This document shows, piece after piece, positions 39,579 through 47,238 of a stretch of 64,000 nucleotides of DNA. The DNA comes from Escherichia coli O157 typing phage 8. Position numbers and translations under genes: made by a program. Below the pieces are notes generated by a model that worked only from the letters and a program-made list of their open reading frames with translations, was not told the origin of the DNA and ran no database searches. Location: the sequence record KP869106; one strand, 5' to 3'. Position 1 is the first letter of the stretch. Each line of letters starts with the position of its first letter.

Positions 39579-40043
39579 TTACTTTGGGTATACACTGTCA
39601 AGATAAATGTCAGCTTCCATTCTACGTCTGTTTTTCAGTCCGTTTGAAGTGACCTTCTTACCTTTGACTGTAACCTTGTTCCACCACTGCATAGCTTCTG
39701 CACAACCCACCTTATTACCAGCATTGTGGCGCTTGATAAATGTGGAATCCTGCATAGCTGTGATACCAATGTTGTATGTTTCACTTACAAGTGCGTCAAA
39801 CTCATTCTGAGAAGTTGGAACATTGACGGCTTTGTTCACTGCTGCAACAAACTTTTCAACATCTGCGAGAAGATACTGTTCAGCTTGTTCAGCGGTAATC
39901 TTCATACCCATCTTAACAGGTTTTCCGTCAATACGGATTGTCCCATACCCGATTGTTGGGATTCCGGCAGAATCTTCGTAAGCCTCTAACTCCAGACCTT
40001 CGAAGAACTTAATAGCATCTAAACCTTTTCTTGAGAGTTGCAT
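39579..40043 (-). CDS. T4-type lysozyme (glycoside hydrolase family 24)
   Basis: N-terminal FEGLELEAYEDSAGIPTIGYGT matches the GH24 catalytic Glu/Asp/Thr region. Confidence 0.75.
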   Translation of the reverse strand: MQLSRKGLDAIKFFEGLELEAYEDSAGIPTIGYGTIRIDGKPVKMGMKITAEQAEQYLLADVEKFVAAVNKAVNVPTSQNEFDALVSETYNIGITAMQDSTFIKRHNAGNKVGCAEAMQWWNKVTVKGKKVTSNGLKNRRRMEADIYLDSVYPK

Positions 40044-41176
40044 TACGCCTCCCCTGCTGGGTTAACTGTAACTGTTGCTGCATTAGATGTTACAGAGCCA
40101 CCTGCACCAGTAACTACACAGGTGTAGCTTCCTGCATCAGCAGCGGTCGCACCTTCTTTGGTGTAAGTTGCAGTAGTTGCATCGAGGATGTCTTCCTCAC
40201 CTTTCTTCCACTGGTAACCTGTCGCACCTGTTGCCACAACATTCAGCGTTAAGGTCTCACCTTCATTGATTTCTTGATTGGTTGGCTGTTGAGTAATTAC
40301 TGGAAGTGCGTTCACAGTTACTACAGCAGCATTAGATGTCACTGCACCACCCGCACCTGTTACAACGCAAGTATATGAGCCTGCATCTGCTGGCAGAGCA
40401 CCAGACTTGCTATAGGTAGCATTTGTAGCTGAAGGAATGTCAGAGCCATCTTTCTTCCACTGGTAACCTGTCGCACCTGTTGCAGTCACTTCCAAGTTAA
40501 TGCTTCCACCCTCATTGACAGTCTGACCAGAAGGCTGCTGTGTAATCACAGGCAGTGCATTAACAGCAACTGTTGCCGCATCTGAGGTAACACTTGTTCC
40601 AGCCTCTCCAGATACAACACAAGTGTATGAGCCAGCATCAGAAGGTACTACAGACTGTTTTGTATAAGTTGCAGAGGTGGCACTAGGAATATCCTCTCCA
40701 TCCTTTTTCCATTGATATCCAGTGGCATTCGTTGCAATAACACTTAGGGTAAGCGTACCACCTTCATTTACTGTTTGATTGGTTGGTTGCTGAGTGATTG
40801 CTGGTGGCTTGATAGCATCCTTCAACTTAGCATTCAACATTGAGAATGGTTTAACTCTTGCCAGCCATTCACAATAAATTGTGTCAACGTCTTTACCATT
40901 GATAATTGCATATTGTAAGTCCATGAAGAAGTCAGAAGTTCTCATTTGAGCACCAATGCTGTAAAGCAACTCATCACTAAATGGAACTTTGTAGTCTGGT
41001 TTGTAGTCAAACTCATCGACTTCTGCAATATCAGCTTCAGGCCAATACGAACTGTAGGTAAGCGGTAAAATAGCCTCTTGATATGTTCTAAAATCATATC
41101 TCTTACCAGCCTTTACGTTTGCAATGAAGCCCTTCACAAACTCTTTGAAGTCTGGGTAAGTCTTTGCTTTAATCAT
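40043..41176 (-). CDS. protein with three tandem Ig-like domains
   Basis: Three ~90 aa repeats each with ITQQP...GATGYQWKKDG...ADAGSYTCVV. Confidence 0.6.
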   Translation of the reverse strand: MIKAKTYPDFKEFVKGFIANVKAGKRYDFRTYQEAILPLTYSSYWPEADIAEVDEFDYKPDYKVPFSDELLYSIGAQMRTSDFFMDLQYAIINGKDVDTIYCEWLARVKPFSMLNAKLKDAIKPPAITQQPTNQTVNEGGTLTLSVIATNATGYQWKKDGEDIPSATSATYTKQSVVPSDAGSYTCVVSGEAGTSVTSDAATVAVNALPVITQQPSGQTVNEGGSINLEVTATGATGYQWKKDGSDIPSATNATYSKSGALPADAGSYTCVVTGAGGAVTSNAAVVTVNALPVITQQPTNQEINEGETLTLNVVATGATGYQWKKGEEDILDATTATYTKEGATAADAGSYTCVVTGAGGSVTSNAATVTVNPAGEA

Positions 41177-43173: not shown

Positions 43174-43254
43174 TTTTAAAAGATGTTGACAGACTCTATA
43201 AAGTTGCTCTAAAGTCTGTCACATCAAACAACAAATGAGAGAAGAGAGTAAAAT

Positions 43255-44670
43255 ATGAGCGAATTATTTAAACATGCGCACCTTCATGCAGGTCGAACTG
43301 AAAATGGTGCTGTAAACCATACTTCATCAATGTCTGCTCTTGTAGACTTTTACAAAGCTGCTGGTTCAAGCCGTAGCAATGTAGAAATCTTACCAGACCT
43401 GTTCTACAAAGCTTTGCGTGAGGATGTTGATGTTGCAGTTCGTATTTTACTGCATATGCGAGATGTACGAGAAGGTATGGGTGAGCGTAAAGCCTTCAGA
43501 ACTGTTTTACTTCAAGCGATTGAAGACAAAGTTTTAGAGTCTACGCAGGTTCTTCGCATTATGGATAAGATTGCAGAACTTGGTCGTTTTGATGACTTCA
43601 AAATCTTCGTAGGTACTCGTTTCGAGACAGATGCCTTCAAACACTTAGAAGCAGCATTACTAGACCCTGCAACAGCAGGTTTGGCGGCTAAGTGGTTACC
43701 ACGAGTCAAACCACGTCATAAGCAGTTTGTAAAACGTTTCTGCAAGTTTGCCAACTTGAGTGAGAAAGAGTACCGCACACTGTTGTCTGCACTATCTGAT
43801 ACAGTTGAGCAAAAAATCTCTGCTAATGAGTTTGGTAAGATTGACTACAGTAAGATTCCTTCACTTGCTGCTGCACGTTACCAAAAACTGTTTAACCGTA
43901 AAGATGGAGAGCGTTACAAAGCTTACATCGAGTCCTTATCAAAAGGTGAGACTAAGATTAACGCTGGTGCTGTTTACCCATACGATGTGATTAAATCTGT
44001 CAAGTATGGTAATGCAGATGTTGCTAATGAGCAGTGGAAAGCACTACCAAACTGGATGGCAGAAGGTGAAAACATCTTGTGTATGTCTGATGTATCAAGT
44101 TCAATGTCTTGGGTGAATTTTGGCTCCATTACTGCTCTGGATATTGGTGTATCACTTGCCTTGTATGTAGCAGAACGCAATACAGGTTGCTTTAAGAATG
44201 AGTTGATGGTTTATTCGACAAACCCTCACTTCATCGAACTGAGTGGTGATTTACGAAACCGTCATCGTCAGGTGATGCGACACGTTGAATATGGCTCAAC
44301 TAACTTACAAGCAGCTTTTGACCGCATTCTTGAAACAGGTAAAAGAAACAACTTGACTCAGAAAGATATGCCAAGTAAGCTTATCATCTTCTCCGATATG
44401 GAGTTTAATCAGGTTGATGGAGCTAACGGTCGTACAAACTTTGAAGCAATTCAGAGTAAGTACAAAAAAGCTGGATATGAGATGCCACAACTGGTATTCT
44501 GGTACTTAGCAAACCGTAATGGTACTTGCGAAGTATCTGTTAAGGATAACGGTGTAGCAATGGTATCAGGGTTCTCTCCAGCCACTTTAAAAGCTCTGCT
44601 TGGTGGTGAGAAGTTTGACCCAATCAGTGTAATGCTCAAAGCAGTAATGATTGACCGTTATATCTGGTAA
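43255..44670 (+). CDS. vWA-domain protein, Ro60/TROVE-like (tentative)
   Basis: MIDAS-like CMSDVSSSMS, then IIFSDMEFNQ and VAMVSGFSPATLKAL, resembling the Ro60 C-terminal vWA region as recalled; directly upstream of the tRNA cluster. Confidence 0.45.
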   Translation: MSELFKHAHLHAGRTENGAVNHTSSMSALVDFYKAAGSSRSNVEILPDLFYKALREDVDVAVRILLHMRDVREGMGERKAFRTVLLQAIEDKVLESTQVLRIMDKIAELGRFDDFKIFVGTRFETDAFKHLEAALLDPATAGLAAKWLPRVKPRHKQFVKRFCKFANLSEKEYRTLLSALSDTVEQKISANEFGKIDYSKIPSLAAARYQKLFNRKDGERYKAYIESLSKGETKINAGAVYPYDVIKSVKYGNADVANEQWKALPNWMAEGENILCMSDVSSSMSWVNFGSITALDIGVSLALYVAERNTGCFKNELMVYSTNPHFIELSGDLRNRHRQVMRHVEYGSTNLQAAFDRILETGKRNNLTQKDMPSKLIIFSDMEFNQVDGANGRTNFEAIQSKYKKAGYEMPQLVFWYLANRNGTCEVSVKDNGVAMVSGFSPATLKALLGGEKFDPISVMLKAVMIDRYIW

Positions 44671-44688
44671 AAAGTTTTAAAAAGGGTA

Positions 44689-44717
44689 TTGACAATGTGT
44701 TTAATACCCTTTAATAT
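44689..44717 (+). promoter_or_regulatory. sigma70-like promoter TTGACA-17-TAATAT upstream of tRNA cluster
   Basis: Consensus -35 with 17 bp spacer. Confidence 0.5.
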
Positions 44718-44835
44718 GTTCTACATAGAAACGAAATGAGAGCTTTTCTAAGATGCTGAAAAATATTTTAAAAAAGTTCTTGACAACCACTAAAAAATAA
44801 TGTTAAAGTGGTTACATAGAGTTTGAAAAGTTTAT

Positions 44836-44912
44836 CTCTGTTTAGCTCAGCTTGGTAGAGCGTTCCGTTTGGGGCGGTAAGGCCGGAGGTTCAAGTCCTC
44901 CAACAGAGACCA
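44836..44912 (+). tRNA. tRNA-Pro (anticodon UGG)
   Basis: Cloverleaf by eye: acceptor CTCTGTT/AACAGAG, anticodon loop TTTGGGG, T-loop TTCAAGT, CCA encoded. Confidence 0.7.
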
Positions 44913-44919
44913 AATTAAT

Positions 44920-44997
44920 GTTCCAGTAGACAAAATGGTAAAGTCACCACTCTTTCAAAGTGGATATCTGAGGGTTCAAATCCCTTCTGGAACGCCA
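44920..44997 (+). tRNA. tRNA-Glu (anticodon UUC)
   Basis: Acceptor GTTCCAG/CTGGAAC, anticodon stem CCACT/AGTGG, loop CTTTCAA, CCA encoded. Confidence 0.65.
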
Positions 44998-45004
44998 GTT
45001 TTGA

Positions 45005-45076
45005 CAGAAGACCAATTACAGCAAACTTAATCTACTCATCTGAAAGTTAATCGGACAAAGAAGATATTTGGTCTGG
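45005..45076 (+). repeat. inter-tRNA repeat element: CAGAAGACC-N-TTACAGCAA ... GGTCTGG
   Basis: One of 5 related copies; may contain a TTGACA promoter or be a small RNA / processing hairpin. Confidence 0.4.
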
Positions 45077-45087
45077 TCATTAAGAAT

Positions 45088-45164
45088 TGCGGGTATAGAG
45101 AAAGGGCGTCTCACATGTCTCATTAGCATGGTATCGGCAGGTTCGACTCCTGCACCCGCCTCCA
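45088..45164 (+). tRNA. tRNA-Met-like (anticodon CAU), atypical
   Basis: Anticodon stem CATGT/GCATG, loop CTCATTA, T-arm GCAGG-TTCGACT-CCTGC, CCA encoded; 1-72 mismatch and odd D-arm. Confidence 0.45.
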
Positions 45165-45170
45165 AATTTA

Positions 45171-45245
45171 CAGAAGACCGTTTACAGCAATATTTATTAA
45201 ATTTTTAGCGGAAAAAATTGAAAGATACGGTCTGGTAATACTAAA
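45171..45245 (+). repeat. inter-tRNA repeat element (copy 2)
   Basis: TTACAGAAGACCGTTTACAGCAA nearly identical to the copy at 45650. Confidence 0.4.
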
Positions 45246-45248
45246 CAT

Positions 45249-45325
45249 GGTTAGGAAGCACATAAGGTATGTGCGGTCGCCTGTTAAGCGAATGGCACAG
45301 GGTTCGAATCCCTGACTAACCGCCA
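45249..45325 (+). tRNA. tRNA-Asn (anticodon GUU)
   Basis: T-arm CAGGG-TTCGAAT-CCCTG, anticodon loop CTGTTAA, CCA encoded. Confidence 0.6.
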
Positions 45326-45334
45326 AATTTAAAT

Positions 45335-45422
45335 GTGTCGTTATCCCGTAGATGGTAGCGGTGGGGACTGTAAATCCCTTGTCATTGAGACTCGGTAGGT
45401 TCGACTCCTACACGGCACACCA
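45335..45422 (+). tRNA. tRNA-Tyr (anticodon GUA), long variable arm
   Basis: Acceptor GTGTCGT/ACGGCAC, anticodon loop CTGTAAA, T-arm GTAGG-TTCGACT-CCTAC, 88 nt. Confidence 0.6.
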
Positions 45423-45427
45423 ATAAA

Positions 45428-45505
45428 GGTTATGTAGTTTAATCTGGTTAAAATACTCCCCTGTCACGGGAGATGATGAGGGTTCGAATCCCTTCGTAAC
45501 CGCCA
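45428..45505 (+). tRNA. tRNA-Asp (anticodon GUC)
   Basis: Anticodon stem CTCCC/GGGAG, loop CTGTCAC, T-loop TTCGAAT, CCA encoded. Confidence 0.65.
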
Positions 45506-45566
45506 ATTTTGATAGGGCTATTTAGCCCCTCCCTTAAAGGGTTCTTACGAGTATTCTTTAAAGGAG

Positions 45567-45640
45567 CAGAAGACCAAATTCAGCAAGTTACTTAAAATTT
45601 CAAGCCAATTTAATTTTGAAAAATTTAAAACTTGGTCTGG
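45567..45640 (+). repeat. inter-tRNA repeat element (copy 3)
   Basis: GCAGAAGACCAAATTCAGCAA ... GGTCTGG. Confidence 0.4.
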
Positions 45641-45653
45641 CTCAACAAATTTA

Positions 45654-45785
45654 CAGAAGACCGTTTACAGCAAAACTTAAACAATCTATTTCTCCGGTAA
45701 AGAAAAGGCGAAGGTTCGATTCCTTCACTCGGCAGATGTCGAGTTGGTGTAATGGTAGCACTTAAGATGATAAACAACGGTCTGG
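45654..45785 (+). repeat. inter-tRNA repeat element (copy 4) enclosing an isolated T-arm-like hairpin
   Basis: CAGAAGACCGTTTACAGCAA ... GAAGG-TTCGATT-CCTTC then ACTCGGC-AGAT-GTCGAGT hairpin ... GGTCTGG; no complete cloverleaf. Confidence 0.35.
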
Positions 45786-45934
45786 TAATTACCTTTGTAG
45801 ATAAGTTATTAAGCTTACTTGTGAGTATGCGACCACAAAGGGTGAATGGGTAAATTCTAGATTTAAACCCAAAAAGGCACATCGCTACAGACCTTAAGCA
45901 AGTCTGGGTAGCTTATCTACAAAGATAATTTAAT

Positions 45935-46010
45935 GGAAGTGTAGCAGAATGGTGATGCGGCAGACTTTTAATCTGACAGGCGATGGGTTCGAATCCCTCC
46001 ACTTCTACCA
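45935..46010 (+). tRNA. tRNA-Lys-like (anticodon UUU), non-canonical T-stem
   Basis: Acceptor GGAAGTG/CACTTCT, anticodon loop CTTTTAA, T-loop TTCGAAT with only about 3 bp T-stem, CCA encoded. Confidence 0.45.
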
Positions 46011-46014
46011 ATAT

Positions 46015-46091
46015 GGTTCAGTCGCAGATAAGGTAATGCAAGGGTCTCATAAGCCCTATGAATGTGGGTTCGATTCCCATCTGAACCTCCA
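46015..46091 (+). tRNA. tRNA with anticodon CAU (Met or Ile2)
   Basis: Acceptor GGTTCAG/CTGAACC, anticodon stem AGGGT/GCCCT, loop CTCATAA, T-loop TTCGATT, CCA encoded. Confidence 0.6.
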
Positions 46092-46092
46092 A

Positions 46093-46168
46093 GCTGGTAT
46101 AGTTAAGAAGGTTATAACACTCCCCTGATAAGGGAACATCGGTGGTTCGATTCCACCTACCAGTACCA
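46093..46168 (+). tRNA. tRNA-Ile (anticodon GAU)
   Basis: Anticodon loop CTGATAA, T-arm GGTGG-TTCGATT-CCACC, CCA encoded. Confidence 0.65.
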
Positions 46169-46183
46169 ATTTCAATAAAGTTG

Positions 46184-46212
46184 TTGACATTGAGATGTGA
46201 CTACTTTATAGT
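46184..46212 (+). promoter_or_regulatory. sigma70-like promoter TTGACA-17-TATAGT inside tRNA cluster
   Basis: Consensus -35 and near-consensus -10 with 17 bp spacer. Confidence 0.55.
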
Positions 46213-46426
46213 AACCTTAGTTTTCGTTGCGTAGCGTCTATTTTGCAAATTTAAAATAAATGCAAACGACAATGTTTTTCTGGCAGTAGCTTGATAGGCT
46301 AAACACCAGTGAGGTCTTCCAATCCCTCATCAAAGAATTTGGCGTACTAGCCCACGGTATGATTAATAAGGTGGGCATCTTTAAGGGCTTTCTAAGAGAG
46401 TCTTTAAAGATAATTACGGGGCGTAT

Positions 46427-46508
46427 CTCAGCGGTCTTCTAAACCGCCGTTAACCGAGTAAGTGGAGTATGCGGGTTCGAGTCCTGCCGCCTCGACCAAT
46501 TTAGTTAG
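46427..46508 (+). ncRNA. tRNA-like RNA with aberrant architecture (pseudo-tRNA or Y-RNA-like candidate)
   Basis: Acceptor CGGGGCG/CGCCTCG, T-arm GCGGG-TTCGAGT-CCTGC, CCA encoded, hairpin GCGGT-CTTCTAA-ACCGC, but no D-arm and a 23 nt extra region. Confidence 0.4.
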
Positions 46509-46647
46509 CAGATTACTTAGACGACCTAAACGGGTCTTCCTGTAGGGAGGTGGTCTGTATCTCATGTTTTCCAGAACATGTAAATAATCTGAGAAGGGGC
46601 TTTACAGTGTTGAGATAATACGGTAAGCTTTGAATTATAGTTTTAAT

Positions 46648-46718
46648 AGGGGTGAGCTATGGCAGCAATAGAGTCTCCAAAATTCTTGATTAGAGTTCGA
46701 ATCTCTACACCCCTGCCA
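46648..46718 (+). ncRNA. tRNA-like RNA with degenerate anticodon arm
   Basis: Acceptor AGGGGTG/CACCCCT, D-arm CTAT...ATAG, T-arm TAGAG-TTCGAAT-CTCTA, but only about 19 nt with no good helix where the anticodon arm should be. Confidence 0.4.
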
Positions 46719-46732
46719 GAACAGGTGCTTGT

Positions 46733-47137
46733 ATGAAACTTTGTAGAAAATGTTCTCAAGAAAAGCCTTTAAGCTGCTTTCATAAAAGAGGTAATGGCTA
46801 TCAGTCTGCTTGTAAAGATTGTAAAGCTAAGTACTCAGCAAAGAGATACAAAGAAGACCCTACTTATAAAGCAAAAAGAAAAGTTAGGGCAAAATATGAC
46901 AAAAAGAGGAACAGAGAGTTCCTTAGTAGATATAAAAAGTTTTGCAAATGCAGAATATGTGGCGAATCTGAGCCAGTAGCTTTGGATTTTCATCACTTAG
47001 ACCCTAAAGAGAAAGATTTTGCTCCAAGCAATCTTAAAACTTACTCTAGAGGCACTATTAAGCGTGAAGTCCGTAAGTGTGTTGTGCTTTGTTCAAACTG
47101 TCATAGGAAAGTTCATGCAGGACTGTTAAGTATTTAA
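46733..47137 (+). CDS. HNH homing endonuclease embedded in tRNA cluster
   Basis: Cys-rich N-terminal zinc-finger-like region; HNH core FHHLDPKEKDF...CVVLCSNCHRKVH. Confidence 0.75.
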   Translation: MKLCRKCSQEKPLSCFHKRGNGYQSACKDCKAKYSAKRYKEDPTYKAKRKVRAKYDKKRNREFLSRYKKFCKCRICGESEPVALDFHHLDPKEKDFAPSNLKTYSRGTIKREVRKCVVLCSNCHRKVHAGLLSI

Positions 47138-47150
47138 CAGTCTTATTAGG

Positions 47151-47238
47151 GGTAGGTAGCGGCTAATGGCAGCCAAACAGTCTTGAAAACTGTTGCCACT
47201 GTAGAGATACGGTGAGGGTTCGACTCCTTTACTTACCG
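47151..47238 (+). tRNA. tRNA-Ser (anticodon UGA), long variable arm, CCA not encoded
   Basis: Acceptor GGTAGGT/ACTTACC, anticodon stem ACAGT/ACTGT, loop CTTGAAA, T-loop TTCGACT. Confidence 0.55.

Follow-up and report, generated by a model that had tools for sequence, protein, structure and literature searches.

A Ro60-fold protein and a linked family of small RNAs in the tRNA cluster of an Escherichia coli O157 typing phage

The genome of Escherichia coli O157 typing phage 8 (sequence record KP869106), of which a stretch of 64,000 nucleotides (nt) forms the window analyzed here, carries a gene for a protein of 471 amino acids (aa) next to a tRNA cluster. This locus raises the question of whether the protein is an RNA-binding ring of the Ro60 type and, if so, which RNAs are its partners. 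An initial annotation had proposed a Ro60/TROVE-vWA-like protein with two aberrant tRNA-like elements as Y-RNA-like partners. The idea of such partners downstream of the gene is probably right but the wrong elements were named: the RNAs linked to the gene form a family of short repeat units, four of which, overlooked in that first reading, lie in the spacers between the tRNA genes. This Felix-O1-type phage shares region 43255-46720 with phage wV8 (genus Felixounavirus) at 99.9% identity and with E. coli O157 typing phage 11 at 100%, and at least 80% of the region is present in 243 of 311 related phage records. The proposed position of the gene directly upstream of the tRNAs is borne out, as a cluster of 26 tRNAs begins 166 nt 3' of the following open reading frame (ORF):

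43255-44670, + strand: 471-aa protein with a predicted Ro60 fold, i.e., a helical-repeat ring and a vWA/MIDAS domain (DUF2828 + DUF7788, phrog_850, wV8 gp047)

At the sequence level, gp047 is matched by the Pfam families DUF7788 (E 1.7e-43, aa 274-455) and DUF2828 (E 3.9e-29) and by the PHROGs family phrog_850, 'RNA-binding protein' (E 5e-184); NCBIfam yielded no match, and a single-sequence phmmer search of the PDB returned only noise (uridine kinase, E ~1.2). A profile of 44 homologs recovers Xenopus and human Ro60 from the PDB with marginal E-values of 0.67-1.3, in alignments confined to the MIDAS segment that place the gp047 motif on the DVSASM segment of Ro60. Profile comparison of the kind suggested by the initial annotation thus gave no TROVE match and only marginal matches to Ro60. 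The MIDAS-like DVSSSMS to which it had drawn attention, at aa 279-285, is fully substantiated: D279, S281, S283, T349 and D381, which make up a complete MIDAS motif, are invariant among the 44 homologs, as are many arginines and lysines in the helical part. Further, an AlphaFold2 model of the protein (mean pLDDT 88.7, pTM 0.88) consists of helical repeats followed by an alpha/beta domain, and the 12 best Foldseek matches of this model in the PDB are all full-length Ro60 structures, from Thermus phage phiLo, Deinococcus (Rsr), Xenopus and human (E 4e-8 to 7e-6, TM-score up to 0.65), with isolated vWA domains ranking below them. Given this clear match in fold and only marginal match in sequence, gp047 is, on the evidence of the model, a protein of Ro60 architecture that belongs to a separate sequence family; the Ro60 part of the earlier proposal thus stands for the fold, and its TROVE part does not stand for the sequence. 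The Ro60-like nature of the protein is not new, as the homolog in Mycobacterium cluster-L phages is already annotated as 'Ro-like RNA binding protein', while RefSeq lists gp047 as 'RNA-binding protein' and other records list it as 'vWFA protein' or 'DUF2828 family protein'.

Inspection of 44600-47200 revealed four plus-strand repeat units in the tRNA spacers of 45004-45789, located 334-1119 nt downstream of the gp047 gene and on its strand:

45004-45080, + strand: U1, short unit resembling the Class I RNAs of Dictyostelium (see below); stem 45009-45015:45068-45074, motif UUACAGCAA at 45016-45024
45170-45239, + strand: U2, short unit; stem 45175-45181:45227-45233, motif at 45182-45190
45566-45644, + strand: U3, short unit; stem 45571-45577:45632-45638, variant motif AUUCAGCAA at 45578-45586
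45653-45789, + strand: U4, long unit; terminal stem 45658-45665:45776-45783, motif at 45665-45673

The units take the form cAGA-AGACCnnn-UUACAGCAA-(35-100 nt)-nnnGGUCU-GGUAAU, in which a terminal stem of 7-8 bp is followed by the motif and a variable loop. U1 fills the spacer between tRNA-Glu and tRNA-Met and U2 that between tRNA-Met and tRNA-Asn, whereas U3 and U4 come after tRNA-Asp. The string AGAAGACC occurs four times within 45006-45662 and seven times in the 64 kb, a count reached in none of 100 shuffles (mean 2.3). All four units fold with a closed terminal stem and an unpaired motif, and the inner triplets of the stem covary, being CAA:UUG in U1 and U3 and CGU:ACG in U2 and U4. An alternative structure, in which an upstream GGTCTGG would pair with a downstream AGAAGACC to form a helix enclosing a tRNA, was rejected, since covariation of the flanking triplets is seen in the other arrangement only. 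U1-U3 are kept at syntenic spacers in two other Ounavirinae lineages, and close relatives carry the canonical AUACAGCAA at the motif position of U3. The long unit, U4, contains in order an anticodon-like hairpin (45689-45705), a T arm (45710-45727), a closed 7-bp acceptor hairpin (~45727-45744) and a D arm (45747-45761), with a partial Rfam tRNA match of 22 bits at 45677-45727; the isolated T arm previously noticed near 45700-45750 is hence real and forms part of this permuted tRNA-like domain. Antisense to U3 and U4 runs an 85-aa ORF (45625-45882, minus strand; 'hypothetical protein' gp048 of wV8); other small ORFs in the wV8 records likewise overlap tRNA genes, and the gp048 call may be spurious.

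These units belong to an RNA family whose existence, covariation, conservation and near-exclusive, strand-specific linkage to the DUF2828 gene emerge from searches in both directions. Starting from the protein, the neighborhoods of the DUF2828 gene were collected from ten distant phage lineages (those of Mycobacterium, Listeria, Campylobacter, Vibrio, Klebsiella, Cronobacter, Fusobacterium, Bacillus, Enterococcus and Staphylococcus). In six of the ten, an exact copy of the 9-mer TTACAGCAA is found on the strand of the gene and no more than ~150 nt away from it, against an expectation of ~0.07 per locus, and a looser scan for a stem of at least 6 bp with CAGCAA places one to four candidate units, with stem sequences that all differ, beside the gene in every one of the ten loci; the candidate in Vibrio phage D481 is doubtful, as the covariance model introduced below has no match there. 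In 80 IMG/VR loci picked via the protein alone, a strict scan counted 54 units on the strand of the gene and five on the opposite one, as compared with 1-11 in shuffled sequence.

A covariance model of 22 short units, termed R1, whose E-values are rough, recovers U2 (50.4 bits, E 1.3e-8, U2 being part of the seed), U1 (37.1 bits, E 1.4e-5) and U3 from the window, and nothing else that is credible. When run on both strands of 85 viral loci (616 kb), all 74 matches at E<=1 fall on the gene strand; in 80 independent loci from bacterial genomes and metagenome-assembled genomes (MAGs), none of which contributed to the model, the figure is 79 of 80, mostly within 300 nt upstream of the start codon. 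Pooled over the 165 loci (~1.1 Mb), 153 of 154 matches thus lie on the strand of the DUF2828 gene. Among 45 independent matches the seven inner pairs of the stem are paired in 100% of instances, and all seven show double substitutions, with a covariation score of 0.81 against 0.25 when shuffled and at most 0.15 when slid. A conserved A and G flank the helix, giving a consensus of A-AAGNNNN-WWACAGCAA...NNNNCUU-GU, while the consensus of R1 itself reads aauAAAGGaugCUUACAGCAA...GcauCCUGaU.

In the reverse direction, a scan of IMG/VR for AAAGNNNCTTACAGCAA returned 121 matches, 25 of which have the 3' strand completing a 7-bp stem. A DUF2828 gene is present in the stored locus of 14 of these 25 (on the same strand in 13) and in none of the 96 stemless ones; the number of stems expected by chance, ~12-14, is in line with the eleven stem-positive loci that have no such gene. 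As a control, the 49-kb stretch of phage T5 (NC_005859) with 25 tRNAs and no DUF2828 gene contains no R1 unit (best score 14.7 bits, E 1.4). The linkage spans phages of Actinobacteria, Firmicutes, Proteobacteria, Campylobacterota and Fusobacteria, in addition to MAGs of Chloroflexi and Spirochaetes, and in seven of 11 lineages a tRNA cluster on the same strand lies within 4 kb of the gene. Listeria phage List-36 (NC_024364) encodes RtcB and an HD phosphohydrolase 3' of its DUF2828 gene. The same phage has a near-threshold match to the ROOL RNA (RF03087) at 2426-2977 (91.5 bits, gathering cutoff 99.1, E 3.7e-17), situated between a tRNA and three Class-I-like units upstream of the DUF2828 gene, so that multiple structured RNAs and genes of RNA repair are gathered at this one locus.

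The tRNA-like interior of U4 has counterparts elsewhere. A script requiring a T arm, a closed acceptor hairpin, two nucleotides and a D arm with GG, and which therefore itself imposes the pairing, returned, for the 1.1 Mb, 16 instances of this permuted module that share the strand of the gene and a single one that does not; the CAGCAA motif lies just upstream in ten of the 16 instances, which include U4 and represent at least nine further lineages. The Rfam model of the bacterial Y RNA YrlA (RF02553) can be aligned in its entirety to two long units, that of Mycobacterium phage LeBron (39.8 bits, E 1.9e-5) and that of Klebsiella phage FBKp34 (39.6 bits, E 2.3e-5), and the long units of relatives as a whole score 39.8, 39.6 and 37.1 bits (E ~2e-5 to 1e-4), all below the gathering cutoff of 69. 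In LeBron and FBKp34 the alignments cover exactly the tRNA-like domain and leave the terminal stem and UUACAGCAA outside. This points to a tRNA-mimic module that, as judged from these alignments, is common to the units and the bacterial Y RNAs, with the presumed protein-binding module being different. Within the window the suggested search with the Rfam Y_RNA and YrlA models produced nothing credible: there is no match at gathering, and the sole YrlA match (17.3 bits, E 8.5) spans two ordinary tRNAs. In further long units, at the loci L018 (2276-2370), L020 (2737-2836), L023 (149-280), L024 (1265-1373) and L040 (2734-2828), the tRNA-like domain is replaced by another conserved insert, CCTTTCTGGAGGGGAAAGCAAAAACTCGCC; this second class suggests that the adaptor modules are interchangeable.

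The comparison with known systems can be extended to the locus as a whole. Known Ro60 proteins, including one from a phage, bind adjacent Y RNAs (PMC4201824, PMC12135203). With the Ro60(Rsr)-YrlA/YrlB systems and the Ro60-Yrl1/Yrl2 system of Thermus phage phiLo, the present locus shares a helical-repeat ring protein with a vWA/MIDAS domain, one to several same-strand small RNA genes within a few kb, RNA termini that are paired, one paralog with a permuted tRNA-like domain (T arm, closed acceptor hairpin, D arm) and, in one phage, RtcB as a gene neighbor. It differs in that the protein is of the DUF2828/DUF7788 type, without a TROVE profile match, and has 471 aa as against 538 aa in animal Ro60; in that a stem with UUACAGCAA is found instead of the bulged helix with GNCGAAN0-1G of Y RNAs; in that the genes often lie within phage tRNA clusters and the YrlA scores are all below gathering; and in that, unlike the Rsr systems, it has no known link to PNPase. 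The TEP1-vault RNA pair, compared by description, likewise combines a TROVE-type ring and a vWA domain with a dedicated small non-coding RNA, but TEP1 is of very large size, has many domains and resides in the vault particle. The stable RNAs of T5 (RNAI, RNAIII, RNA1-3, RNAIV and others) are, like the units, interleaved with phage tRNA genes and are presumably products of tRNA processing; the T5 stretch examined nevertheless has no R1-type unit, DUF2828 gene or common motif. In the T5 record (NC_005859, 28-42 kb) eight 'stable RNAs with unknown functions' are annotated, some of them described as tRNA-like, and none is matched by R1.

On the strength of these observations, gp047 is probably, though by no means certainly, a divergent ring of the Ro60 class, with U1-U4 as its cognate small RNAs that would be made as part of the tRNA transcript and freed from it by the processing of tRNA ends. 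The following promoter-like sites, all with a perfect -35 hexamer, bear on the transcription of the locus:

43186-43215, + strand: sigma-70-like promoter, TTGACA / 18 nt / TAAAGT, 5' of the Ro60-like gene (consensus scan 10/12, a pattern match only)
44689-44717 and 44780-44809, + strand: two promoter-like sites preceding the tRNA/small-RNA array (consensus scan)

A scan of the plus strand found no terminator-like site between 44836 and 45800, and the two sites ahead of this terminator-free array suggest that the units would be transcribed together with the phage tRNAs, from promoters at ~44689 and ~44780, and would be freed when the tRNA ends are processed. The protein would then recognize the terminal helix flanked by the conserved A and G, along with the single-stranded UUACAGCAA after the 5' strand, in a manner analogous to that of Ro60 on the conserved terminal helix of Y RNAs, and the variable loop would serve as an adaptor module. 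In U4 this adaptor would be a tRNA mimic, as in YrlA, and could either recruit tRNA-handling enzymes and nucleases to the ring or divert them from the phage tRNAs. The recurrent embedding in same-strand tRNA clusters, together with the RtcB and HD phosphohydrolase genes of the Listeria phage, points to the surveillance, repair or protection of structured RNA, above all tRNA, during infection as the most likely role of such a ribonucleoprotein (RNP). The physical binding of protein and RNA, the processing of the units from the tRNA precursor, the adaptor role of the loop and the biological function are thus steps that we infer.

Several observations weigh against this proposal. Pfam TROVE (PF05731) has no match to the protein even at E<=1. 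On the RNA side, the seed of R1 was chosen by a script that requires a stem; the model matches only about half of the loci at E<0.01, scores U3 weakly (17.1 bits, E 0.5) and has no hit within 4 kb of the gene in Vibrio phage D481. In the comparison with Y RNAs, the outer Ro60-binding stems of YrlA do not align to the LeBron and FBKp34 units, where they are flagged as non-pairs, and U4 is too divergent to be matched by the YrlA model. The Ro60-binding motif GNCGAAN0-1G of bacterial Y RNAs (Chen et al. 2014, PMC4201824) has no counterpart in these RNAs, and neither does the CGAA motif via which Yrl1 and Yrl2 of phage phiLo were found (PMC12135203) occur in the units. Finally, at many bacterial loci only 10-40 nt separate the end of the unit from the start codon, a position that would fit a purely cis-acting leader.

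This last point underlies what we regard as the best-surviving, if unlikely, alternative, namely that the units are leader or autoregulatory elements of the DUF2828 mRNA, in the style of ribosomal-protein leaders, rather than stand-alone partners. Consistent with it, most bacterial and prophage loci have their best unit within the 300 nt immediately 5' of the gene, and the units at the R1 loci are always on the strand of the gene. However, the units of the window and of other Ounavirinae lie downstream of the gene, with promoter-like sites of their own and interleaved with tRNAs, and those of LeBron, FBKp34 and S-CoN_Ph7 are also downstream. Moreover, units occur in arrays of two to four with differing loops, are found 2-4 kb away in giant-virus-like contigs (and on the opposite strand in two of these, L257 and L295), and in some instances include a complete tRNA mimic that would be superfluous in a leader. 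Such a leader would in any case still imply binding of the RNA by the protein, and the location just before the start codon leaves room for a cis-autoregulatory role in addition to, or in place of, that of a partner RNA.

A less likely explanation still is that the units are spacers or processing signals of the tRNA precursor, or unrelated small RNAs merely inherited along with the gene, and that the protein does its work on tRNAs or other RNAs independently of them. U1 and U2 do exactly fill tRNA spacers, and phage tRNA clusters, as annotated in T5, do hold stable RNAs of unassigned role. Yet the 25-tRNA cluster of T5 has no units, units also adjoin genes that have no tRNA within 4 kb (as in LeBron and Fnu1), the reverse search shows that true units essentially always adjoin the gene, and the linkage holds across phages of five bacterial phyla as well as the Chloroflexi and Spirochaete MAGs. 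More improbable again is the notion that the protein is a vWA/MIDAS interaction or assembly factor with a merely structural likeness to Ro60 and no role on RNA, to which the lack of a TROVE sequence match, the usual role of vWA domains in protein contacts and the records that annotate the gene only as 'vWFA protein' lend some color; the best structural matches of gp047 are to full-length Ro60 and not to isolated vWA domains.

If gp047 and the units do form an RNP, its reach may extend beyond bacterial viruses. Among the Rfam families, RF01414, which was built from dictyostelid sequences, is alone in matching the short units repeatedly. Its alignments are full-length, at the R1 coordinates and on the gene strand, with scores of 14.9-30.7 bits that all fall below the gathering cutoff of 41.5 (U2 20.5 bits, U3 14.9 bits; five IMG/VR or Listeria phage units 23.1-30.7 bits; three more units 23.6-27.4 bits). 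The Class I RNAs of Dictyostelium are ~60 nt long, with a 6-bp stem conserved in structure and not in sequence and an unpaired 11-nt motif, CCUUACAGCAA, beside its 5' strand; they start with AAG and end with CUGU, and were concluded to be unique to Dictyostelia (Kjellin et al. 2021, PMC7919456). The phage consensus has every one of these features, and DdR-28 and other real sequences show the same layout: a covarying terminal stem of 6-8 bp, the motif (C)CUUACAGCAA unpaired right after the 5' strand, termini AAG... and ...CUG(U), a loop that is A-rich toward its 3' end, a length of ~60 nt and multiple paralogs. The differences are that the phage units are not of dictyostelid origin, that the promoters in the window are sigma-70-like as against the Dictyostelium upstream sequence element (DUSE) ~60 nt upstream of Class I genes, that some phage units carry tRNA-like or other inserts, and that Rnp1A/CIBP, the sole direct binder named for the Dictyostelium RNAs, is an RRM protein.

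Units of the R1 type also occur near DUF2828 genes of giant-virus-like contigs. In L257, where a long-form DUF2828 protein of 587 aa is encoded beside eukaryote-type kinases, two stand in tandem (27.9 and 38.2 bits), and L295 has one of 26.2 bits. A third contig, L224 (IMG/VR GVMAG-M-3300017963-20), has three to four units, of up to 42.6 bits, at 69-1195, before and within a dense array of ~11 tRNA genes; no DUF2828 gene is present in its 3.3-kb stored stretch. DUF2828 has been noted in mimivirus-like sequences and in plants. As to a DUF2828 protein in Dictyostelium, a homolog search with a query of the giant-virus type returned only unnamed metagenomic proteins, and a search for signature peptides in the partial proteome files of the Kjellin supplement only an unrelated Ras-vWA protein.

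Common descent of the phage units and the Class I RNAs is plausible from these sequence features, with convergence on a common protein-binding signature as the alternative. Tentatively, and with more doubt than confidence, one might go further and see in the RNAs with a stem and UUACAGCAA, together with DUF2828, an ancient RNP family parallel to that of Ro60 and Y RNA, with the Class I RNAs as its eukaryotic branch, perhaps acquired via giant viruses. On such a speculative view, for which we would claim no higher likelihood, the family could span tailed phages, prophages, protist giant viruses and eukaryotes, and the core partner of the Class I RNAs might be a Ro60 paralog of the DUF2828 type.

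The RNA family beside DUF2828 genes in phages, prophages and giant viruses is apparently undescribed: Rfam 15 has no description of it at curated thresholds, and none of the family, its linkage to DUF2828 or its likeness to Class I RNAs was found in the open-access literature, although subscription journals may hold one. If correct, the proposal would give a testable function, that of an RNA-binding ring with dedicated small RNAs, to the very large DUF2828/DUF7788 family, which has members in plants, in giant viruses and in the genomes of hundreds of phages and makes up over 2,500 clusters of a protein search. It would also add a widespread RNA family beyond those at the curated thresholds of Rfam, tie RNA surveillance of the Ro60 type to phage tRNA clusters, which is of relevance to host defenses that cleave tRNA, and make the role of the abundant, developmentally regulated Class I RNAs in Dictyostelium directly testable, with the phage system being tractable for biochemistry and structure.

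Turning to the partners first proposed, the remaining features of the region are best read against its relatives (L012 and Shigella phage Sf14 among them):

46417-46499, + strand: probable variant allele of tRNA-Arg(UCU) with a replaced acceptor stem, a lost D arm and an 18-nt insertion; outside the RNP candidate
46648-46718, + strand: probable variant allele of a conserved tRNA-Trp(CCA)-like gene with its 5' half and acceptor stem replaced; outside the RNP candidate
46733-47137, + strand: HNH-endonuclease-like ORF directly 3' of the Trp-like element (Pfam HNH matches below cutoff)

The first element, given previously as 46427-46508, does exist and has no D arm; its true bounds are 46417-46499, and its extra region is of ~22 nt. 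It comprises a 7-bp acceptor stem, the anticodon loop CUUCUAA, a variable region of that length, a T arm and an encoded ACCA, and scores 31.7 bits with the Rfam tRNA model (cutoff 29), while ARAGORN makes no call. A canonical tRNA-Arg(UCU) occupies its exact position in L012 (98% identical), Sf14 and phage pEC-M719-6WT.1, with the anticodon arm, T loop and 3' flank in common; the acceptor stem is replaced relative to these and is still self-complementary. The second element is tRNA-like in so far as ARAGORN calls it tRNA-Trp(cca), but the Rfam tRNA model has no match to it even at E<=10; it aligns with the conserved Trp(CCA)-like gene of L012 and Sf14. The HNH-like ORF is absent from both of these relatives, and the configuration of the two variants in the window recurs in only nine of 256 related phages. 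This synteny and rarity mark the two elements as probable variant alleles of ordinary phage tRNA genes, beside a homing-endonuclease insertion, and not as conserved partners of the protein. The view that they are Y-RNA-like partners of gp047, which could appeal to their acceptor and T arms, encoded CCA and abnormal bodies and to acceptor stems changed on both strands with pairing retained, can accordingly be given next to no weight, as their positions, anticodon arms and flanks match those of the tRNA genes of relatives, they lack the stem and UUACAGCAA signature, and nothing similar tracks the protein family in other lineages.

Oversized 'tRNAs' of 111-121 nt lie directly 3' of the DUF2828 gene in Cronobacter phage S13 (5895-6015 and 6025-6137) and Klebsiella phage FBKp34 (6003-6113). 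They score 41-57 bits with the tRNA model, have insertions of ~40 nt and no ARAGORN call, and could be intron-containing or otherwise elaborated tRNAs.

The stretches around the variant tRNAs have features of their own. The non-coding 46213-46416 (+ strand), which follows a strong promoter-like site at 46184-46212 (11/12 matches), is strongly structured (minimum free energy -58.7 kcal/mol, z -4.07) and includes a perfect 16-bp hairpin just 5' of the tRNA-Arg-like element; weak, sub-threshold Rfam matches to tmRNA and permuted tmRNA at 46110-46415 were taken as noise. The ~150 nt between the two variants (46500-46647, + strand) are almost invariant among the window, L012 and the more distant Sf14, with a conservation exceeding that of the flanking tRNA-like genes, and hold a hairpin (CATGTTTTCCAGAACATG) and a promoter-like stretch. 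Further upstream, on the minus strand, the ORF at 40043-41176, annotated as a tail protein in wV8, encodes three tandem Ig-like repeats (ITQQP..QTVNEG...GYQWKK...AGSYTCVV).

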